In this document: positions 31,155 through 39,145 of the stretch, one piece after another
Layout of the letters: each line of letters opens with the position of its first letter
Position numbering within the stretch: position 1 is the stretch's first letter
Assembly: GCA_044375895.1 (NCBI GenBank)
Contig: JBILLV010000004.1
Location: 26,901 to 90,900, forward strand
Reading direction: 5' to 3'
Origin: Polyangiales bacterium
GTDB lineage: Bacteria; Myxococcota_A; Polyangia; Polyangiales; Ga0077539
Length of the DNA stretch: 64,000 nt
The notes under the pieces: generated by a model
Seen by the model: the letters and a program-made list of their open reading frames with translations, nothing else
Told to the model about the DNA's origin: nothing
The model's database searches: none
Position numbers and translations under genes: made by a program

Positions 31155-33992
31155 TCAGCGGGCGGTGACGAAGCGGAGGTGACGCGTCGCCGCCGCCACG
31201 ACGGCGGCCTCGGCGCGGGGAACCTCATGGTACTGGTTTTGACGCCACAGCTCGGCGCCGTCGCGGAAGTGGGCGGAGCCCGTGTTGGCCGACTGCCCGC
31301 CCGGGATGGCGTTGAAGGCCCGCGGCCCCGTGGCGTCGAGCTCCACCACCAGACGCTGCGACGCGCCGCTGCCGAACGAGAAGTTGGGCGCCGTCAAACC
31401 CGGGAAGGACGCGTCCACCACGTCGATCCCGCCGTGCCGCGGAAAGCCCCGCGGAAACATCGTGTCGCCCTCGCGCGGGATCGACAGCGCCGCCCCCGGG
31501 CCCGGGATGATGCTGCTGAAGCGCACCGTGTGGAGCTGCCCCCAGCGCCACATCCCCATGTCCTGGGTGTTGTAGGCGTTCATCGCTTCGAGCGAGGCGA
31601 GGCCGCGGTCGAGCGAGCGGAGGATGATGAAGTCCCGCGTCTCGGTCACGTCGGTCGTCGCGAGGTCGTCCCAGAGCGTGCTCTGCCCCGTCGCCATGTC
31701 GCGCGTGCGGAGCGTGGCCACGTCCTCGAGGATGCGCAGCGTGAAGCGGGTGCGGTCGACCCCGACGCCCGAGGCCTGCCCCATGTTGAGCACCGCGAGC
31801 TCGTCGTTGATGAGCGCGTTGAAGAGCTGCCCCGCCCACGCGTGGAAGATCGTCGTCGCCACGGAGTCGTTGCGCTGCGCCTCGGTCGCGCTCGCCTCGA
31901 CGCCCGACTCGCCCTCCAGCGACCACGCCATCACGCGGCGGGCGGCCTCCCGGATGCGCTCCTGCCGCGGTCGCAGCGTCGTGGCCAGGGCCGCGAGGTC
32001 GCGCTGCGAGTTGGGCGTCGTCCACTCCATCTCCATGCGGGCGAGGGCCTGCATGAGGAAGGGCCGGTAGCGCCCCGCGGCCGTCACGTGCGCGTCGGCC
32101 TGGATGGACTTCATGTCGTCGACGGTCGCCCGCGTCCCGAGGGCCCGCAGCCGCGTGGCGATGCGCTCCCCGCGCCACCCGCGGTCAAACCCGCACCCGA
32201 GGTACGCCGGCGCGTCGAAGGGGTTGCCGTCGAAGGTGACGCCGGCCTGGTCCTGGTTGGCGGTCTCCAGCCACGGGAGCATCGGCCCCAGCGTCGCCTG
32301 CGGGATGCGCTCGGGCGGGAGGTTGCCCGTCCACTCGGCCTCGCCCGTCCCGGGGAGCACCGTGCAGGGGTTGGTGCCCATGGGCATCGTCGGCGACCAG
32401 GTGAGCGCCCCCGCCGCGCGGATCGGGATGTTGGCGTGGCTGGTGTACTCGACGTTGCCCTCGATGTCGGCGATCACCCAGTTCTGCGCGCCGACCCCGA
32501 AGGCGCGGACGGCCGTCTTGGCCTCGGCGGCGTTGCGCGCGTAGGCCACGTTGAGGAAGGCGTCGATCTCCGTCGTGGGCTGGTGGCCCGTCCACTTGAT
32601 CGTGAGGGCGCGGTTGCCCGTGCGCGGCACGATCATGTTGTTGCGAATCTCGGGGATGACCGGGCCGTGATGGGGCACGTACTCGTAGCGGGCCATGTAC
32701 ACGCCCGTCCCCGTCTGGACGGCCTCGGTGCGCACCTCGATGGGCACCTGGCGGCCGTTGAAGAGCACCGTGTCGGGCGCCCCCGCGGCCCCCGGGGTGA
32801 CGGTCTCGGCGTAGACGTCCGTCACGTCGTAGCCCGCCGTGGTGACGCCCCACGCGAGGCGCGGCGTAAACCCGATGATGACGCCGGGGATGCCGGGGAA
32901 GGTGGTGCCGGTGACGTCCAGCGCGTCGGGGCCGCGGGTGACGGTGATCTGCGAGCCCCACCAGATGGCCGGACCCGTGAGCGAGAGGTGCGGGTCGTTG
33001 GCGAGCAGCGCGCGCCCCGACATCGACGCCGAGGGGTGCACCACCCAGTTGTTGCTCCCGCGCGTCTCGTCGCCCCACACCTCCGCGAGGGCCTTGGCGT
33101 GGTGCATGAAAGTCTCCGCGCGGCGGTAGAGTCCGCCGACGGCGGGCCGGTCGACGTCCGGTCGGAAGGTGCTCATCATGCCCATCGGCCGCGGGAAGAA
33201 ATTGGGGACGACGGCCACCTGCGCGGGCGGCGCCCACCGCAGCACGTCGGCCAGCATCCCCTGGCGGGGGCTGCCCGCTCGCTCAAACTGCGCCGTCACG
33301 CGCTCGATGAGGGCCGAGAGGTTGATGTCGTCGTCGGCGTCATACGAGAGCGAGTACGACTGGTAGCGGCCGATGACGAGCGAGTCGACGGGGGTCCACT
33401 CGGGGGTGCTCTGGTCGATCACGAGCTCGGTGCCCGGCGGGAGCTCCGCGTCGCCGCGCGCGACATCGCGGAGGTACAGGTTGACGCCGCGGGAGAACGC
33501 TTCGAGCATCGTGCGCGAGCGCCCCGGGGCCGCCGCCGCCCACATCGCCTCGGCCGCGCGGCGCAGCCCCAGCACGCGGGCCGTGAGGTCTTGCCCCACG
33601 AGCGCGGGGGACAGCACGCCGAAGCGCTCGGCCAGGGTGCCCGAGGCCACGCGGCGCAGCATCTCCATCTGCGGCATGCGGTCGCGCGCCATGATGTAGC
33701 CCTGCACCGTGGAGGCGTCGCGGAGGCTCGACGCGTAGATGTGCGGCCAGCCCATGCGGTCGTACACGACGTCCACCGGGCCATCGAGGCCCATCAGCCC
33801 GGCCGCGGGCGACGACACCGGGTGCGCGGCGATCGCCGGGGGAATGCCATCCGGCGGCTGCGTCGCGCCGTCGACCCGGTCGCCCGCGGCGTCGGTGGCG
33901 TCGGCGGCAGCGGCGTCGGTGGGGGCGGGCTGCGGGTCGGTGCAGCCGAGGGCGGCGAGCGTGAACAGGCACGGGAGAACGGGGCGGCGCAT
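31155..33992 (-). CDS. Penicillin acylase-family Ntn-hydrolase (lipoprotein)
   Basis: YDRMGWPHIYA, QGYIMARDR, GSNNWVV (nucleophile Ser), LLANDPHL, WGVTT, QNWVIAD, WRWGQLH, PGGQS. Confidence 0.93.
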   Translation of the reverse strand: MRRPVLPCLFTLAALGCTDPQPAPTDAAAADATDAAGDRVDGATQPPDGIPPAIAAHPVSSPAAGLMGLDGPVDVVYDRMGWPHIYASSLRDASTVQGYIMARDRMPQMEMLRRVASGTLAERFGVLSPALVGQDLTARVLGLRRAAEAMWAAAAPGRSRTMLEAFSRGVNLYLRDVARGDAELPPGTELVIDQSTPEWTPVDSLVIGRYQSYSLSYDADDDINLSALIERVTAQFERAGSPRQGMLADVLRWAPPAQVAVVPNFFPRPMGMMSTFRPDVDRPAVGGLYRRAETFMHHAKALAEVWGDETRGSNNWVVHPSASMSGRALLANDPHLSLTGPAIWWGSQITVTRGPDALDVTGTTFPGIPGVIIGFTPRLAWGVTTAGYDVTDVYAETVTPGAAGAPDTVLFNGRQVPIEVRTEAVQTGTGVYMARYEYVPHHGPVIPEIRNNMIVPRTGNRALTIKWTGHQPTTEIDAFLNVAYARNAAEAKTAVRAFGVGAQNWVIADIEGNVEYTSHANIPIRAAGALTWSPTMPMGTNPCTVLPGTGEAEWTGNLPPERIPQATLGPMLPWLETANQDQAGVTFDGNPFDAPAYLGCGFDRGWRGERIATRLRALGTRATVDDMKSIQADAHVTAAGRYRPFLMQALARMEMEWTTPNSQRDLAALATTLRPRQERIREAARRVMAWSLEGESGVEASATEAQRNDSVATTIFHAWAGQLFNALINDELAVLNMGQASGVGVDRTRFTLRILEDVATLRTRDMATGQSTLWDDLATTDVTETRDFIILRSLDRGLASLEAMNAYNTQDMGMWRWGQLHTVRFSSIIPGPGAALSIPREGDTMFPRGFPRHGGIDVVDASFPGLTAPNFSFGSGASQRLVVELDATGPRAFNAIPGGQSANTGSAHFRDGAELWRQNQYHEVPRAEAAVVAAATRHLRFVTAR

Positions 33993-34038
33993 GGCGGCGG
34001 ATTGAAACGCAACCGGCGCCCCGCTACAAGCGCCGTCG

Positions 34039-34530
34039 ATGAACGATCCCACCGAAGCGCTCCGCTCCCTCGTCACCCGGGCGCACGTGCTGAGCCTCGC
34101 CACGATGGACGGCGGCGCCCCGGCCCTGTCGCTCGTCCCCTACGCCGTCGCCTTCGGGCCCGCGCGCCTCTACGTGCTCCTGAGCGAGCTCGCCGCGCAC
34201 ACCGCCGCGCTCCGCGCTGACGCGCGCTGCGGATGGATGATCCACGAGCCGGTCCGCGGCGACGACCCGCGCGGCGGCCACGGCCTCGCGCGCGTGACGG
34301 CCCGGGCGACGGCGCGGTTCCTCTCCCGCGACGAGGCGCGCGAGGCCGGCGCCGAAGGCCTCTACCGCGGGCGCTTCGCGGTGGCCGACACGCTCCTCGG
34401 GCTGCGCGACTTCCACTTCTGCGAGCTCGCCCCCACGGCCGGCACCGTCGCCTTCGTGCAGGGCTTCGGGCGCGCGTACCGGGTCACCGGCGACGACTTC
34501 GAAGGGGTCGAGCACGTCACCGGGCGCTAA
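34039..34530 (+). CDS. Pyridoxamine 5'-phosphate oxidase/HugZ-like protein
   Basis: LSLAT..SLVPY, LSELAAHTAAL, DFHF, FVQGFGRAY. Confidence 0.82.
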   Translation: MNDPTEALRSLVTRAHVLSLATMDGGAPALSLVPYAVAFGPARLYVLLSELAAHTAALRADARCGWMIHEPVRGDDPRGGHGLARVTARATARFLSRDEAREAGAEGLYRGRFAVADTLLGLRDFHFCELAPTAGTVAFVQGFGRAYRVTGDDFEGVEHVTGR

Positions 34531-34817: not shown

Positions 34818-35402
34818 ATGTGGCCCGCCCGCTCCGCCATCCGACCCGTGCCCGCCCACGCCGTGGTCCCGAGGGACGCCATCGACGCCGTCGAGGCCGA
34901 GCTCGACGAGGCCGACGACCTCGACGGGCGCATCCACCTCGCGCTCCGCGAGCTCGACCTCGCCCAGCCCACCCTCGCCGCCTGGCTGCGCGGCGAGCTC
35001 GACGGCGTCGCCGACGACACCGCGGTGGCCCTCGGGCAGTTTCTCGGCGTCGCCGTGCACCGCGCCTTCCTCGAAGCCTTCGGGCAGCGGCAGCGGAAGG
35101 TGGACGAGAGCGGCCTCGCGACGACGCGCGCCACCTTCGACTACGACGAAGAGCTCCGGCGCGGCGCCGTCGACGAGCTGCTGGAGAGCGACGACCTCGT
35201 CGCCATCGGACAGCCGCACCTCATGGCCTTCGTCCGCGAGCAGGTGGAGGTGTCGCTCGAACCCGATGAGGACGGCGACCCCCCCGACGTCGACCTCGAA
35301 GCCGTCGCGGTGATCTACAAGGTCGTCCTCATCGAGATCCTCGCGCTCGGTCAGGCGGTGGCGCCGCCGCGGGGCGTCCTCTCCACCGGCGTGCTGATGT
35401 AG
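34818..35402 (+). CDS. Hypothetical acidic helical protein
   Basis: Protein-like composition with QPTL/QPHL internal repeat; start may be GTG 34848. Confidence 0.65.
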   Translation: MWPARSAIRPVPAHAVVPRDAIDAVEAELDEADDLDGRIHLALRELDLAQPTLAAWLRGELDGVADDTAVALGQFLGVAVHRAFLEAFGQRQRKVDESGLATTRATFDYDEELRRGAVDELLESDDLVAIGQPHLMAFVREQVEVSLEPDEDGDPPDVDLEAVAVIYKVVLIEILALGQAVAPPRGVLSTGVLM

Positions 35403-35405
35403 CGG

Positions 35406-36299
35406 TCACACCTCGGGGAGCGAGCGGGCGTACTCCACCAGCGACTCCTTCACGCGGAGGGCCGCGGTCGTGCGGTGCAGGTCGCTCCGCCACGCGAGGT
35501 AGATGGTGTCGGGGATGTACGGCAGCTCGGCGTGGAGCCGACGCAGCCGACCGGGGTGGCCGTAGCCCGCCACGCGCCGCGGGATCACGCCGACGCCGAG
35601 GCCCGCGAGCGTGAGGCTCTTCACCAGCTCGAGGTCGCCGCAGGAGAGGAGCCGCGCGGTCGGCGTGTCGTCCGCGCTCAGGCGCTGGATGAGCTCCTGG
35701 CACTGCGGGACGCGGCCCGTGTAGATGAGCGGGCCCAGGCGAACGCGCTCGATCGCCGCGGCGAGGGACGTCGCTGGGGCCTCGTCGACGCAGACGAAGA
35801 GGTCCATCGCGTCGTGGAAGAGCTTCACCAGCACGAGGTCAGGGTGGGCGATGGGGTTCACCAGCAGCCCGTAGTGCACCTCGCGGGACAACACCGCGTC
35901 GCGCACGCCGGGGGAGGTGCCGTTCCAGAGCGTGAGCTCGATGCGGGGGTAGGCCGGGAGGAAGCCGCGCATGAAGCCCGGGAGAAAGTACGCCCCCAGG
36001 GACTCGTGGCACCCGAGCACCAGCCGACCCTGCGCGTCGCCCTCCAGCCCGCGGATGTCCTGCTCCATCCGCTCGACCGTCGCGAGGATCTCCCCCGCAT
36101 GCCGAACCAGCGCCTCGCCGGCGACCGTCAACTGCACGCCGTCGCGCCCCCGCAGCACGATCGTCGTGCGCAGCTCCTCCTCCAGGCTCTTGACCGCGCC
36201 GGTGAGCGTGGGCTGCGAAATGCCGAGCGCGCGGGCCGCCGCGGAGAGGCTCTTGTGCCGGGCGATCGCCTGCACATAACGGAGGTGCGTGAGGTGCAT
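35406..36299 (-). CDS. LysR-family transcriptional regulator
   Basis: MHLTHLRYVQAIA..SLSAAARALGISQPTLT..LEEEL..LTVAGE; substrate domain ..LAGLGVGVIP. Confidence 0.95.
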   Translation of the reverse strand: MHLTHLRYVQAIARHKSLSAAARALGISQPTLTGAVKSLEEELRTTIVLRGRDGVQLTVAGEALVRHAGEILATVERMEQDIRGLEGDAQGRLVLGCHESLGAYFLPGFMRGFLPAYPRIELTLWNGTSPGVRDAVLSREVHYGLLVNPIAHPDLVLVKLFHDAMDLFVCVDEAPATSLAAAIERVRLGPLIYTGRVPQCQELIQRLSADDTPTARLLSCGDLELVKSLTLAGLGVGVIPRRVAGYGHPGRLRRLHAELPYIPDTIYLAWRSDLHRTTAALRVKESLVEYARSLPEV

Positions 36300-36351
36300 C
36301 GAGTGTCGCGATCTGAAGCAATACTCGACCGCGCACGTCAAGCGTGTACGG

Positions 36352-36372
36352 TCTTCACAAGGTCGTTGAAGA
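36352..36372. promoter_or_regulatory. Inverted repeat TCTTCA-N9-TGAAGA, possible operator
   Basis: Palindrome in the AT-richer gap between lysR and the peptide gene. Confidence 0.35.
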
Positions 36373-36452
36373 AACTCCCCCGCGCGCCGTAACACGCTTG
36401 CGCGTGAGACCCGATGATGGTGTCCTCGGCGCACAGGAGGAGCGAACGTTCC

Positions 36453-36812
36453 ATGACCTCGAAGCAGGATCCGTCTCTCAAGAACCAGGGCACCCTCGAC
36501 GACAGCGACATCGAAGAGGTCGCGCAGCCGACCCGTCGCTCGGCCCTCGGCACCGTCGGGGCCGTTCTCGCGGGCGCCGTGTTCGGCGCCGCCGCGCTCA
36601 CCCCTGGTGAGGCCGAGGCGTGCAACCGCCGCACGGGCCGCACCGACAGCGATCCGGGCGACGGCGTCGGCCGCGGGCGCACCGGCCTCACGGACAGCGA
36701 CTCGGGCGACCAGGCCCAGTGCGGTCGCGGCCGCGGCGGTGGCCGTCGTCGCCGCACCTGCACCGATCAGGACAGCGGCAACGGCAGCGATCCCCCGAAC
36801 CACCCCTGCTAG
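36453..36812 (+). CDS. Small Tat-signal peptide with TDxDxG repeats (candidate RiPP precursor)
   Basis: RBS AGGAGG at 36435; 119 aa; PTRRSALG + hydrophobic stretch + AEA; repeats TDSDPGD, TDSDSGD, TDQDSGN; 4 Cys. Confidence 0.8.
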   Translation: MTSKQDPSLKNQGTLDDSDIEEVAQPTRRSALGTVGAVLAGAVFGAAALTPGEAEACNRRTGRTDSDPGDGVGRGRTGLTDSDSGDQAQCGRGRGGGRRRRTCTDQDSGNGSDPPNHPC

Positions 36813-36877
36813 TCGTCGCCTCGCGACACCCTCTCGCCCGCGTCGTCTCACCGCCTCGTAGCCCCCCTCAAGACATC

Positions 36878-38071
36878 ATGAACACCCACGGGAAGTTCCC
36901 GGCGCTGTCGCGGCTCATCGCGCCGGTGTCTGTCGACGATTTTCTCACGCGCTACTGGGAGCGTGAGCACCTCCACGTGCACGCGGCCGACCGCAGCGCG
37001 ACGCCCCCGCTGGTGACGCTCGCCGAGATCGACGCCGCCCTCACCGGACGCCCTCACCGCCACCCCGACCTCCAGCTCGTCGACGCCGCCCACACGGTCG
37101 AGGTCGACGAGTACGCCGCCGACGACGACTCCGTCGACCCGGTGCGCGCCATCAAGCGCTTCGCCGCCGGCGCGACCATCGTGCTCAACCGCCTCGACGA
37201 GCAGGCCCCGCGCGTCCGCGACCTCCTCGCCACCCTGGAGAGCGAGCTCGGGATCCTCGTCCAGGCCAACATGTACCTCACCCCCCGCGGGGCGCAGGGC
37301 TTCCCCATCCACTACGACAACCACGATGTCATCATCGTGCAGTGCGAGGGCCGCAAGCGCTGGCGCCTCTACGACGCGCCGAAGCCGCTCCCGATGCGCG
37401 GCGAGCGCTTCGAAGCCGCGGTGACCAAGCCCGGCCCGAAGTCCGCGGAGTTCGTGATGGAGCCCGGCGACGCGCTCTACGTGCCCCGCGGCCTCATGCA
37501 CGACGCGCTCGCCGAGGGCGACGAGCTCTCGCTCCACGTCACCATCGGCTTCCACGCGGTGCGCTGGTCGGAGGTGCTCCTGGAGGCCATCGCGCGCGCC
37601 GCCGTCGACGACATCGAGCTGCGCAAGGGCATCCCCCTCGGCGCCCTCGTCGGCGGGGCCTCCGACGAAGCGCTCGGGGCCTCGCTCCGCGCCCACGCCG
37701 CCCGCGTGCTCGACGGCGTGCGCTGGGAGCGCGTCCGCGACCGGGTCGAGTCGCAGTACTTCCGCGGCCACAAGGAGCGCCTCGGCGGGCTCCTCCTCGA
37801 CGCGGCGACCGTCATCACCGCCGACACGACCCTCGCTCGCCGTGAGGGCGCGCAGGTGGCGGTCGAGCACCAGGACGAGGCCGTGGTTCTCACGGTGCAG
37901 GGCCGCTCGACGCGCTGGCCCAGCCACGCCGGCTCCACGCTCGAAGCCGCCCTCTCGCGCTCGACCTTCACCCCCCGCGAGCTCGGCGAAGACCTCGACG
38001 AGAAGGGCCGCGTCACCCTCGCGCGCCGCCTCGTGGCCGAAGGGGCCGTCCGCATCGTGCGGGCGGGGTGA
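36878..38071 (+). CDS. JmjC/cupin 2-oxoglutarate-Fe(II) oxygenase (ROX/NO66/YcfD-like)
   Basis: FLTRYWE, ANMYLTP..GFPIHYDNHDV..EGRKRW, EPGDALYVPRGLMH (HxD..H triad), C-terminal winged-helix-like LARRLVAEG. Confidence 0.9.
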   Translation: MNTHGKFPALSRLIAPVSVDDFLTRYWEREHLHVHAADRSATPPLVTLAEIDAALTGRPHRHPDLQLVDAAHTVEVDEYAADDDSVDPVRAIKRFAAGATIVLNRLDEQAPRVRDLLATLESELGILVQANMYLTPRGAQGFPIHYDNHDVIIVQCEGRKRWRLYDAPKPLPMRGERFEAAVTKPGPKSAEFVMEPGDALYVPRGLMHDALAEGDELSLHVTIGFHAVRWSEVLLEAIARAAVDDIELRKGIPLGALVGGASDEALGASLRAHAARVLDGVRWERVRDRVESQYFRGHKERLGGLLLDAATVITADTTLARREGAQVAVEHQDEAVVLTVQGRSTRWPSHAGSTLEAALSRSTFTPRELGEDLDEKGRVTLARRLVAEGAVRIVRAG

Positions 38072-38280
38072 GCGCCATGGAGGAGACCATCGCCGTCGAA
38101 GGGATGACCTGCCAGGGATGCGTCGGCTCGGTGACCCGCGCGGTGAGCGCCGTCACGGGCGTCGAGTCGGTGGACGTCGACCTCGCGGGCAAGCGCGCCA
38201 CGGTGCGCTTCGACCCCGCCCTCACCACCCCCGCCCGCGTCCGGGAAGCCATCCAGGACGCGGGCTTCGACACCCCCTGA
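38068..38280 (+). CDS. Heavy-metal-associated (CopZ-like) chaperone
   Basis: VEGMTCQGC..VDVDL..IQDAGF; GTG overlaps the oxygenase stop (alternative ATG at 38077). Confidence 0.9.
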   Translation: MSAMEETIAVEGMTCQGCVGSVTRAVSAVTGVESVDVDLAGKRATVRFDPALTTPARVREAIQDAGFDTP

Positions 38281-38301
38281 AACACCCCCCGCGCGGCGTC
38301 G

Positions 38302-39036
38302 CTACGCCGCGTTGCCGAGGATCACCGTCGCCAGGAAGCCGATCCCCGCGGCGACGGCCGAGCCGATCACCACGATGGCCCGCGCCTTCGCGCTCCGGAG
38401 CTTGGAGCGGGCGGCCTCACGCTCGCGCGGATCGACCTTCTGCGCGTCGCCCCCGTCCTGACGAAACACCATCCCCTTGCTCACCTCGCGCAGCCCCTCG
38501 TGGAGGGCGCGGGCCTCGTCGCGCAGCGCCACCAGGGCCCCGAGCGCGTGCTGCAGGAGCGAGGGGTCGGGCTCGCGGCCCCAGGCGATCGACGCGATGC
38601 CTTCGCCGAGGCGCACGCGCGGCGAGTCGTCGTCGAGGGGAAAGGCCAGCAGCGCCTCGCGAACCGTGGCGGTGAGCACCTTGCGGGCGGCCTCGACGGG
38701 CGCCGACTCGATCACGAAGCGATCGTCGAAGACCCGGTCGCCCACCTCAGCGTCCACCGTCATCCCGAGTGCCTTGTCGAGGCGCTCCCCCGCGAGCTCG
38801 GGGCGGAGGGTGAGCTCCACCGGGCTGCCCGTCGCCTCCACCAGGACGGCCGTACGAACCGCGCGCGACCCGAGGCCCGCGAGGCGGATCGTGACGGCCA
38901 CGCCGAGGCGGTCGCCGACGAAGACGAGGCCATCGCGCCCCTGGGCTTGAAGGGAGAGGCGACGGATGCCGCAGACCCCCGCGACGGCTTCGAGCCTCGC
39001 GGCGGCGGCGTGGAGCGTGACTTCGTGCTTGCTCAT
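38302..39036 (-). CDS. Hypothetical protein with C-terminal TM
   Basis: RBS GAGGAG; GDRVFDDRFVI motif; terminal hydrophobic helix. Confidence 0.7.
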   Translation of the reverse strand: MSKHEVTLHAAAARLEAVAGVCGIRRLSLQAQGRDGLVFVGDRLGVAVTIRLAGLGSRAVRTAVLVEATGSPVELTLRPELAGERLDKALGMTVDAEVGDRVFDDRFVIESAPVEAARKVLTATVREALLAFPLDDDSPRVRLGEGIASIAWGREPDPSLLQHALGALVALRDEARALHEGLREVSKGMVFRQDGGDAQKVDPREREAARSKLRSAKARAIVVIGSAVAAGIGFLATVILGNAA

Positions 39037-39145
39037 GGGGCGCTCTCCTCAGGCGTGACGGCGATCGTACGACACAACGATCGAGGCGGTGGGCCTCGTC
39101 CCGGCGTGTCCATGAATCACGACGGACGAGGTGGCCTTCGGGTCT

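Follow-up and report, generated by a model that had tools for sequence, protein, structure and literature searches.

What is the function of a gene for a small repeat peptide that stands directly ahead of a gene for a JmjC oxygenase, and do the metal-binding protein and the regulator encoded on either side of this pair belong to the same system? The question is raised by a locus within a 64,000-nucleotide stretch of a Polyangiales bacterium genome, referred to here as the window. An earlier note had read the four genes of the locus as one system in which the oxygenase modifies Asp/Arg-rich repeats to give an exported metal-binding peptide linked to copper or other metal homeostasis. Inspection of the open reading frames confirmed that the LysR gene is divergent and carries the expected domains, that exactly 65 nt separate the peptide stop from the JmjC start, and that all four genes lie where the earlier note had placed them (Table 1). 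The reading that we favour, with a probability of roughly 0.55, is that of a two-gene module: a cytoplasmic ROX-type JmjC enzyme would use the adjoining small repeat protein as its own substrate, and this protein would then be exported through the Tat pathway.

Table 1. Features of the locus; positions are counted from the first base of the window.
Feature	Position	Strand	Remarks
LysR-type regulator gene	35406..36299	-	Pfam HTH_1 1.1e-17, LysR_substrate 2e-28
Intergenic/control region common to the LysR and peptide genes	36300..36452	.	153 nt; holds Shine-Dalgarno AGGAGGAG
Repeat-peptide gene P0001, proposed substrate	36453..36812	+	119 aa ORF
N-terminal export region of the peptide, residues 1-56	36453..36620	+	acidic TLxDxDIxEV, R28-R29, hydrophobic helix 31-48, AEA before Cys57
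Repeat 1, TGRTDSDPGDGVGRG, residues 61-75	36633..36677	+	conserved columns, 63 sequences
Repeat 2, TGLTDSDSGDQAQCGRG, residues 77-93	36681..36731	+	conserved columns, 63 sequences
Repeat 3, CTDQDSGNGSDPPNHPC, residues 103-119 (C-terminus), Cys at both ends	36759..36809	+	conserved columns, 63 sequences
NO66/MINA53-like JmjC 2-oxoglutarate/Fe(II) oxygenase gene P0002, 397 aa	36878..38071	+	PF08007 6.4e-30
HMA (heavy-metal-associated) protein gene, 70 aa	38068..38280	+	PF00403 1.1e-21, motif GMTCQGC

The ribosome binding site of the peptide gene proved as strong as had been claimed, with a perfect Shine-Dalgarno sequence at 36435-36442, ten bases 5′ of the ATG. Both this site and the ATG are unchanged in four related sequences, across which the control region showed a mean column identity of 88%. 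No Shine-Dalgarno sequence was seen ahead of the JmjC gene, and this arrangement fits an abundant substrate and a scarce enzyme. The RNA structure of the 65-nt spacer was unremarkable (z -0.11), so that an attenuator is not indicated, and a consensus scan of positions 35300-39100 returned neither sigma-70-like promoters nor terminators. Comparison with three relatives revealed purifying selection on the three genes of the + strand, with dN/dS values of 0.11-0.44 (0.11-0.36 for the peptide gene and 0.38-0.44 for the HMA gene). Contigs from RNA libraries matched the peptide gene over 420 nt at 96% identity and over 169 nt and 174 nt at 100%, the last of them extending from the 3′ end of the peptide gene across the spacer to 36904. 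These contigs, in which DNA carry-over is possible, give a weak hint of peptide-gene expression, and stretches of the operon that they leave uncovered carry no information.

The product of the JmjC gene scored 103.7 bits against the Pfam JmjC_2 model (cut-off 22), and showed no signal peptide and no NCBIfam match. The residues of its HxD...H iron triad (H145, D147 and H208) and the 2-oxoglutarate-binding K160 do not vary among 15 sequences and line up with the motifs of NO66; judged by these residues, the enzyme looks active and its Fe/2OG site intact. When the protein was compared by sequence with solved structures, the best matches were human NO66 (2e-28) and MINA53 (2e-27), with the Rhodothermus YcfD-like enzyme at 6e-11 and YcfD at 4e-7. 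On these values we rejected identity with the YcfD/RoxA orthologue, a doubt that the earlier note had itself raised. NO66 was also the best fold match of the AF2 model (pLDDT 89.7), with a TM of 0.70 over 444 aligned columns that span the full ROX fold, whose three domains (JmjC, helical and C-terminal) we take to be the JmjC barrel, the helical dimerisation domain and the C-terminal winged-helix-like domain. The enzyme thus resembles the histidyl C3-hydroxylases NO66 (RIOX1) and MINA53 (RIOX2) more than any other in sequence, fold and iron and 2OG ligands, but identity in the fold alignment is 21-23%, and a loop motif, L171-P172-x-R174-G175-E176-x-F178, which is invariant or nearly so in the alignment of its clade, aligns to a different sequence in NO66. 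Furthermore, NO66 and MINA53 act on the ribosomal proteins Rpl8 and Rpl27a, whereas the implied substrate here is an exported repeat peptide encoded adjacently. The arginyl hydroxylases of L16, E. coli YcfD/RoxA and the Rhodothermus enzyme, share PF08007 and the three-domain build (fold ranks 26-33) but are far more distant, and we know of no partner peptide gene for YcfD. The predicted complex of the JmjC alignment with peptide residues 57-119 scored 0.01 against a mark of 0.32, a value that counts neither way on binding.

We then considered the peptide itself. None of the 106 homologues found carries a Pfam domain, and a profile built from 22 members retrieved 847 cluster representatives at E≤1e-3. 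An ESM Atlas search with the peptide gave a 0.90 match to methylamine dehydrogenase light chain, rejected as chance since few features are shared, and otherwise only unnamed 'hypothetical protein' clusters. The N-terminal region displays the pattern of a Tat substrate, namely a twin arginine, a hydrophobic stretch and an AxA site. R28-R29 is invariant in all 22 sequences and the RR motif occurs in 58 of 62 peptide ORFs; L15, D19 and I20 are invariant in an 11-sequence subfamily, as are A54 and A56 in the subfamily, and the signal is predicted to be cleaved ahead of Cys57. Four of six relatives scored above the 16.7-bit cut-off of TIGR01409 (TAT_signal_seq), the window's own peptide having no NCBIfam match at E≤0.01, and the same genome encodes TatC (3.8e-67, contig C277). 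We do not regard the window's peptide as a lipoprotein, because the A-E-A ahead of Cys57 is not a lipobox; a second peptide of the genome, on contig C457, carries L-G-G-C and might be a lipoprotein.

Beyond the signal helix (31-48) the peptide is predicted to be disordered, as extended hydroxylase substrates are, and the mean pLDDT of its AF2 model (49.9) leaves no usable fold for a structure search. The mature part, with its three TDxDxG repeats, contains 9 Asp and 11 Arg and is therefore not acidic overall. Across 63 sequences, the invariant residues are T61, D65, D67, D70 and G75 in repeat 1, D81, D83 and G91 in repeat 2, and D105, D107, D113 and C119 in repeat 3, while T77, T80, D86, C90, R92 and G93 in repeat 2 and C103 in repeat 3 reach at least 90% conservation. 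The number of cysteines in the mature part is even in 58 of 62 peptide ORFs. At locus L029, C-TDSDSG...G-x-G-R-x-C loops follow one another in series with cysteines flanking single repeats, and the subfamily of the window's peptide has four conserved cysteines and a C-terminal H-P-C. Even numbers of cysteines that bracket repeats fit disulfides better than copper sites.

The link between the two genes was evident from both sides. Starting from the peptide, a JmjC homologue was present directly downstream on the same strand in 13 of 14 species-representative genome loci, which come from Myxococcota and Sphingomonadales (Altererythrobacter). In the reverse direction, from the enzyme, a match to the peptide profile at E≤1e-4 was present in 52 of 80 metagenomic JmjC loci, and six further loci contained a low-GC variant, SDSDSSD, together with a Tat motif, 58 of 80 in total; of the remaining 22, nine had less than 310 nt upstream and 13 had ample flanks and no peptide. 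The same profile, run on 119,538 bases of control DNA, found only the window's own peptide. Among 401 genomes of the phylum, the JmjC protein was detected at E≤3e-60 in eight and the peptide in seven, all seven within those eight, and seven genomes with distant JmjC_2 proteins alone had no peptide, a table that overstates independence because the carrier genomes are kin. Similarly, the peptide adjoins 8 of 10 close-clade JmjC loci versus 0 of 10 distant ones. As to exceptions, G315 (98% complete) has a close JmjC gene and no detected peptide, and in G380 and G401 the peptides are sited away from the JmjC gene. Elsewhere in the genome of the window, contig C457 bears another peptide-JmjC pair, which differs from the first and adjoins a TatA gene, and contig C52 bears an orphan peptide paralogue (72% identical). 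Across the loci compared, the pair has no further constant neighbour, and two phyla preserve the arrangement amid surroundings that otherwise vary. The co-occurrence that the earlier note had proposed to look for is thus present, and the conserved unit is the peptide and the JmjC gene alone. We regard a functional coupling of the two as highly probable. Cultured carriers exist, for example Altererythrobacter strains.

In the mechanism that we propose, the substrate would be a disordered chain with repeats of the form (T/S)-G-x-(T/S)-D-x-D-x-G-x-x-x-D-x-x-G-x-G-R, in each of which the JmjC enzyme, supplied with cytoplasmic Fe(II), 2-oxoglutarate and O2, would hydroxylate one residue. Its target would most likely be C3 of an invariant Asp, with the Arg/His of the G-R/H-G element as second choice. 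The twin-arginine signal would then carry the finished peptide across the membrane and be cut off ahead of Cys57. Outside, paired cysteines would close the repeats into disulfide loops, and triads of Asp or hydroxy-Asp could bind a metal ion, with Ca2+, Fe3+ and copper as equally plausible candidates. In the window's organism and its nearest kin, the unit would have been extended by a translationally coupled HMA protein and by a LysR regulator encoded divergently. The gene anatomy, the intact catalytic residues, the fold, the co-occurrence and the export signal are observations; the substrate role of the peptide, the residue modified, the disulfides and the metal binding belong to the proposal. 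That the JmjC enzyme hydroxylates the neighbouring peptide seems probable to us. The choice of Asp as the modified residue is tentative, somewhat short of an even chance, and the conservation of Asp could equally serve metal binding alone, without hydroxylation.

The same enzyme-substrate pair might instead be directed at the Arg/His of G-x-G-R/H-G, with Asp needed for recognition or metal binding only. YcfD targets Arg81 of L16, and NO66 and MINA53 target His. All repeat types of the peptides include a G-x-G-R element, whose last position is R in 48% of 272 repeat windows, and in the 63-sequence subfamily the conservation of both R74 and R92 is 90% or higher. The characterised ROX enzymes, as far as they are covered by PMC9994133, all hydroxylate Arg or His in a glycine-rich loop. 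On the other hand, in 22 diverse sequences the repeat-1 Arg falls outside the conserved columns, with H, Y, N, F or Q in its place, whereas D65, D70, D81 and D83 are invariant. Other residues frequently take the place of Arg in the G-R-G element, and hydroxylation at Arg could then not apply to all members; the repeat logo, anchored on D-x-D, cannot rank Asp against Arg conservation. We consider an Arg/His target rather unlikely.

It is also conceivable that the JmjC enzyme acts elsewhere, on a ribosomal protein such as uL2 or uL16, and that the peptide is a co-regulated neighbour and no substrate, perhaps an exported calcium-binding protein or else one that regulates the enzyme or serves as its decoy. 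The enzyme has the fold and catalytic core of a ribosomal oxygenase, all characterised ROX enzymes act, to our knowledge, on ribosomal proteins, and some close JmjC genes have no adjoining peptide. In addition, a PDB sequence search with two other JmjC_2 paralogues of the genome (C429 and C448; C193 was left out) found no clear YcfD orthologue, C429 being YxbC-like and C448 weakly MINA-like. However, a housekeeping ribosomal role is ill-suited to a gene that occurs in 8 of 401 genomes and tracks the peptide, and the pair persists in two phyla while its neighbours change, so that we hold an action elsewhere to be very unlikely.

The HMA gene begins with a GTG that overlaps the TGA of the JmjC gene as GTGA. 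This overlap, already seen in the earlier note, is the same in all four related sequences, while an alternative ATG start at 38077 is not conserved in them, and HMA is predicted to be translationally coupled to JmjC. The description of its product as a CopZ-like chaperone stood in part. The protein has an HMA fold with an MxCxxC site (77.4 bits against PF00403, cut-off 24.8), but it fell below the cut-offs of all CopZ, CopP and MerP NCBIfam models (best, NF033795 with 66.6 versus 91 bits; TIGR00003, 59.8 versus 62 bits), and the 19 ORFs scanned at about 22.7-51 kb included no copper ATPase (CopA), CusA or multicopper oxidase. All NCBIfam matches of the LysR protein were far under cut-off. HMA and LysR genes accompany the pair at only one of the 14 genome loci and two of the 80 metagenome loci (L016, L077 and L078). 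In these three, the JmjC proteins are 81-91% identical and seven genes are syntenic, the whole neighbourhood being shared on both sides. Such fully syntenic close relatives amount to a single evolutionary event, and the copper link is accordingly a lineage-specific, candidate link. Contrary to the earlier note, which had taken them as parts of the system, HMA and LysR are lineage-specific additions.

Tat exports cofactor-loaded proteins, and one could imagine all four genes as a single copper or metal-homeostasis system in which LysR senses, the oxygenase matures a metallophore and HMA serves as chaperone, for instance by loading Cu(I) before export. The GTGA coupling, the purifying selection on HMA with its canonical GMTCQGC, and the four conserved cysteines and H-P-C of the peptide subfamily speak for it, as do bufferins, exported ribosomal peptides that in the account of PMC11626156 are able to buffer copper. 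Nevertheless, the linkage in three related loci is indistinguishable from common descent, loci L017-L024 with the same 4-Cys peptide subfamily are without an HMA gene, and the missed CopZ-type cut-offs, the lack of copper genes among the ORFs scanned and the bracketing cysteines all weigh against a four-gene copper system, which we judge very unlikely.

Compared with known systems, the two-gene module shares one trait with RiPP pathways, a precursor-type gene adjoining a modifying-type enzyme gene. A leader protease, an RRE, a dedicated exporter or transporter and a receptor are not conserved beside the pair, and the sole removable N-terminal part of the peptide is the general Tat signal. Bufferins carry a Sec-type export signal, not a Tat signal, and are modified on Cys by an MNIO (DUF692) enzyme instead of a JmjC enzyme; no DUF692/MNIO Pfam match was found among the operon genes or the neighbouring ORFs scanned. 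As reported in PMC11626156 and PMC12452194, they are ribosomal peptides that are modified in the cytoplasm, leave by a general export signal and bind metal outside it. BipG of biphenomycin synthesis, a JmjC ornithine hydroxylase of a ribosomal precursor peptide (PMC12707348), would be alike in that a JmjC enzyme modifies a ribosomally made peptide. Its cluster, as described there, comprises an MNIO, a radical SAM enzyme, an arginase-like protein, a protease and a short core, unlike the two genes, long repeats, Tat signal and missing protease found here. AspH on calcium-binding EGF domains and SmaO in a RiPP are described as 2OG oxygenases that make beta-hydroxy-Asp (PMC6817910, PMC12186529). 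Their short or disulfide-bounded substrates may parallel the Asp-rich, Cys-bracketed loops of the present peptides, but the enzymes are not of the JmjC_2 type, and Asp is a putative target here.

A more far-reaching reading, which we see as distinctly unlikely, is that the NO66-like JmjC enzymes of bacteria do not modify ribosomes but produce a large class, as yet without a name, of exported, disulfide-stapled metal-binding repeats with beta-hydroxy-Asp. These would have to be finished in the cytoplasm and would therefore exit by Tat, and in the present locus HMA would load the metal or service the enzyme iron before export, giving a ribosomal metallophore with a chaperone and a LysR sensor.

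In agreement with the earlier note, to which the combination was unfamiliar, no description of a peptide-JmjC pair was found in the literature searched. Bacterial JmjC neighbourhoods were surveyed by Iyer et al. 2010 (PMC2938197), in whose main text the terms 'twin-arginine' and 'signal peptide' occur 0 times. The Figure 4 legend of that article mentions 'GlyRR', a glycine-rich repeat domain that is also standalone in prokaryotes, and these repeats possibly bear on priority. All in all, the overall interpretation of the earlier note is partly supported, and the peptide-JmjC pairing, present in many bacteria, is apparently undescribed so far.

JmjC protein hydroxylases are well studied in humans, and the sole proven job of their bacterial relatives that we know of is the hydroxylation of L16 by YcfD. 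If the proposed module is real, a dedicated, linked substrate would constitute a second biological role for this JmjC clade, accessible to a simple assay from two genes and one mass shift. A name would then also be due to the peptide family, which counts at least 847 clusters at 50% identity and for which neither Pfam nor NCBIfam has a model. If, moreover, hydroxy-Asp is formed within Cys-closed loops, these peptides would be a bacterial counterpart of the hydroxylated calcium-binding EGF domains and a new route to exported metal-binding peptides.

Coordinates of the features at and near the operon
Feature	Coordinates	Strand	Description
Penicillin amidase family gene	31155-34103	-	982 aa; upstream of operon; PF01804 1.5e-154
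HutZ/PNPOx-like gene	34039-34530	+	upstream of operon; TIGR04110 60.8 bits, far under the cut-off of 225
LysR gene	35406-36299	-	divergent; Pfam HTH_1 and LysR_substrate
Shine-Dalgarno of peptide gene, AGGAGGAG	36435-36442	+	strong ribosome-binding site
Peptide ORF	36453-36812	+	119 aa
Acidic TLxDxDIxEV stretch of peptide	36453-36530		residues 1-26, before the twin arginines
JmjC gene	36878-38071	+	start 65 nt past peptide stop; Pfam JmjC_2 6.4e-30
HMA gene	GTG start at 38068	+	GTGA overlap with JmjC stop; Pfam HMA 1.1e-21

All four genes that the earlier note had placed at this locus, encoding a repeat peptide, a JmjC oxygenase, an HMA protein and a divergent LysR regulator, were found there, and the coordinates agree with the spacing it had given between the JmjC gene and a peptide gene with a strong ribosome-binding site. 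The HMA start overlaps the JmjC stop, as that note had also described. The GTGA formed by the overlap is unchanged between the window and three relatives, two of which have TCG in place of the alternative ATG at 38077; the overlapping GTG is therefore taken as the true HMA start. Comparison with the three relatives gave dN/dS values of 0.11-0.36 for the peptide, 0.19-0.39 for the JmjC gene and 0.38-0.44 for the HMA gene, indicating that all three are real genes. No Pfam match was obtained for the peptide, and neither it nor the JmjC protein has an NCBIfam model. The window, with a G+C content of 72-77% across its length, lies on contig C35 of a 10.3-Mb genome (672 contigs, 91% complete), and relatives with the same locus are labelled as Polyangiales or Myxococcales MAGs. 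The synteny of the penicillin amidase and HutZ/PNPOx-like genes is kept in the closest relatives, and conserved flanking proteins of 194 aa and 244 aa gave no Pfam or NCBIfam match. Fourteen DNA runs contained half or more of the words sampled from positions 36300-38300; 13 are labelled lake water metagenome, and three may represent the source sample.

Metatranscriptome contigs from four libraries map to the operon. They include a contig of 420 nt over 36445-36864 with 16 differences, one of 347 nt over 36465-36811, an identical one of 169 nt over 36484-36652, and another identical one, of 174 nt (36731-36904), that spans the 3′ end of the peptide gene and the spacer and reaches 27 nt into the JmjC gene; smaller pieces lie on the JmjC and HMA genes. 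Because such libraries can contain DNA, these contigs give a weak hint that the operon is transcribed.

A scan based on the peptide, with one genome kept per species, yielded 14 loci, and 13 of them had a JmjC homologue (31-82% identical) immediately downstream, encoded on the same strand. The paired loci include four alphaproteobacterial ones, from three Altererythrobacter genomes and one alphaproteobacterial MAG. The lone unpaired locus (L029) comes from a genome in which peptides occur on at least five contigs and one JmjC lies elsewhere. In this Sphingomonadaceae MAG (G401), three tandem peptide genes lie at L029 5485-7580, peptide matches occur on five contigs, and the sole JmjC sits on a contig separate from the tandem peptides; in one of the latter a cysteine pair encloses every repeat.

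The converse scan, based on the enzyme, gave at least 600 matching metagenome stretches, at least 515 of which encode a relative, and the best 80 of these were examined. A peptide-profile match (E ≤ 1e-4) was present at 52 of the best 80 loci, with the peptide upstream on the same strand in 34, divergent in 13, downstream in 4 and otherwise arranged in 1. Six further loci, of ~43-47% G+C, carried a Tat-signal protein made of SDSDSSDxSGR repeats, which was missed by the profile and picked out by composition, so that the total rose to 58 of 80; the remaining 22 consisted of 9 loci with less than 310 nt upstream and 13 with ample flanks and no peptide. The same profile, run on 119,538 bases of control DNA, matched nothing besides the window's own peptide. 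The low-GC variant was seen on metagenome contigs L105, L111, L125, L133, L147 and L148 (42-47% G+C), upstream of JmjC proteins 27-30% identical to the window's.

Among 401 sampled genomes of the phylum, a JmjC match was found in 15 at E ≤ 1e-20 and in 8 at E ≤ 3e-60. The peptide profile (E ≤ 1e-6) matched 7 of the 401 genomes, all within the 8 with a close JmjC, and none of the 7 having only distant JmjC_2 proteins, a table that overstates independence because the carriers are kin (three families, one order). Independent support for the pairing comes from the alphaproteobacterial and low-GC loci. A peptide was present within 1.5 kb of the JmjC gene at 8 of 10 close-clade loci versus 0 of 10 distant loci, and clustering of all flanking ORFs revealed no additional gene shared more widely than within a single group of 5 to 7 related loci. 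The expectation that peptide homologues co-occur with the oxygenase was borne out in genome loci, metagenome loci and sampled genomes alike, and we regard the coupling of peptide and oxygenase as real.

Among solved structures, those closest in sequence to the JmjC protein are human NO66 (2e-28) and then human MINA53 (2e-27), with B. subtilis YxbC (7e-15), a Rhodothermus YcfD-like protein (6e-11) and E. coli YcfD (4e-7) ranking lower. Since NO66 and MINA53 match far ahead of YcfD, the enzyme is not the YcfD orthologue, an identity that the earlier note had counted against its own proposal. Residues H145, D147, H208 and K160 are invariant in 15 JmjC sequences, and the stretch containing H145, D147 and K160 closely matches the HYD and EGRKxW stretch of NO66. 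An AF2 model (pLDDT 89.7) aligned with NO66 chains over 444 columns with a TM of 0.70, NO66 coming ahead of MINA53, the YcfD enzymes, YxbC, JMJD5 and FIH in the fold comparison. In the family traits compared (Pfam match, iron- and 2OG-binding residues and three-domain build), the enzyme belongs with the ROX/JmjC_2 group. No signal peptide was seen at its N-terminus, and it is therefore regarded as cytoplasmic.

The first 56 residues of the peptide comprise an acidic TLxDxDIxEV stretch, twin arginines (R28-R29), a hydrophobic helix and AEA ahead of Cys57, and the last 63 hold three repeats and four cysteines (C57, C90, C103, C119), with 14 Gly, 11 Arg and 9 Asp. A word-index search retrieved 106 homologues, none with a Pfam domain, named solely 'hypothetical protein' or 'twin-arginine translocation signal domain-containing protein'. 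When 1.84 billion proteins were searched with a profile built from 22 diverse members, 847 cluster representatives, mostly of 100-300 aa, matched at E ≤ 1e-3 and 375 at E ≤ 1e-10. Invariant in the 22 are R28, R29, D65, D70, G75, D81 and D83; in a 63-sequence Cys-bearing subfamily, T61, D65, D67, D70, G75, D81, D83, G91, D105, D107, D113, C57 and C119. The repeat unit derived from 272 windows of 62 metagenomic peptide ORFs is (T/S)-G-x-(T/S)-D-S-D-(S/T/P)-G-x-x-A-D-x-x-G-x-G-R, in which two Asp are fixed by construction, the windows being anchored on [TS]DxD. The RR motif is present in 58 of the 62 ORFs, and the post-signal cysteine count is even in 58 (0 in 26, 2 in 20, 4 in 7, at least 6 in 5). 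In one Sphingomonadaceae MAG every repeat is bracketed as C-TDSDSG-x3-D-x2-G-x-G-R-x-C, a shape shared by the third repeat of the window's peptide (C103 to C119). The peptide can be read as a series of Asp-rich loops closed by putative disulfides; its AF2 model showed no fold past the signal helix (pLDDT 49.9). The TLxDxDIxEV stretch, kept in myxobacterial peptides and absent from alphaproteobacterial ones, could be an enzyme recognition element.

A second, different peptide-JmjC pair, whose peptide also has the acidic stretch, lies on contig C457 of the window's own genome (L015 1065-3218). There, the peptide has 177 aa and four regular TGLTDSDQGxWADPVxxGRG repeats, the JmjC protein encoded after it has 394 aa and is 34% identical to the window's, and a divergent TatA gene (PF02416, 9.7e-15) adjoins the peptide gene. 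This peptide has a possible lipobox, LGGC. Further along (L015 3287-6103), a 938-aa frame that matches the AcrB/ACR_tran profile at positions 98-361 alone, with an unrelated N-terminal part, appears to stem from a frameshift or a misassembly; the genes after it encode an OmpR-type response regulator and a histidine kinase. A third peptide, on contig C52 (L014 6377-6784, minus strand), is 72% identical to the window's, has the same four cysteines and shows no JmjC in the 13 kb around it. The existence of this orphan paralogue suggests that several peptide genes can share a single enzyme. Next to it lie genes for a PF10118 metal-dependent hydrolase and for a membrane protein without Pfam match. 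Contig C193 (L013) carries another cupin/JmjC-like gene, directly upstream of a gene that we take to encode adenylosuccinate lyase (purB); a MINA/No66-like neighbourhood including purB is mentioned by Iyer et al. 2010 (PMC2938197).

The HMA and LysR genes accompany the pair in the relative loci L016, L077 and L078 only, whose JmjC proteins are 82%, 91% and 81% identical to the window's. L016 and L078 are syntenic for all seven genes from the HutZ-like gene through the downstream 244-aa gene, and L077, a 4.6-kb contig, spans six of the seven. The HMA gene is absent at the other 13 genome loci and at 78 of the best 80 metagenome loci; among these HMA-free loci are some (L017-L024) whose peptides belong to the four-Cys subfamily of the window's own. 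In this lineage, the tight GTGA coupling points to joint action of the HMA protein with the JmjC enzyme or its product, an association that rests on a single evolutionary event. The ORFs scanned within ~10 kb of the operon encode the penicillin amidase, the HutZ-like protein, sigma-54 activators, a ClpB-like ATPase and others, with no copper pump or oxidase among them. Of the four-gene metal system proposed earlier, the peptide-JmjC pair recurs, and the HMA and LysR genes are limited to the window and three close, syntenic relatives; the putative copper layer, with HMA and LysR, was added locally.

No paper describing a JmjC enzyme together with a Tat-exported repeat peptide came up in full-text literature searches, and the main-text passages of a 2010 survey of bacterial JmjC neighbourhoods (PMC2938197) do not mention such a pair. 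As far as we found, it is undescribed. One RiPP pathway is known to use a JmjC enzyme, BipG (PMC12707348); our pair resembles RiPPs in logic but is without dedicated leader, protease or exporter. Compared with bufferins (PMC11626156), the proposed outcome is alike, whereas enzyme and chemistry differ.

Because the aspartates are invariant across the 22 diverse peptides and Arg is replaceable, Asp is favoured as the putative hydroxylation target. Arg or His in the repeats is a less favoured candidate, kept because all ROX enzymes characterised to our knowledge hydroxylate Arg or His in glycine-rich loops. The simplest reading of the parts would be hydroxylation followed by export: the active-looking cytoplasmic JmjC enzyme would first modify the disordered repeat peptide, which would then leave through its Tat-type signal, a kind of signal that exports proteins whose maturation is completed in the cytoplasm. 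Outside the cytoplasm this would yield a disulfide-stapled peptide that binds metal, with cysteine pairs around Asp triads.
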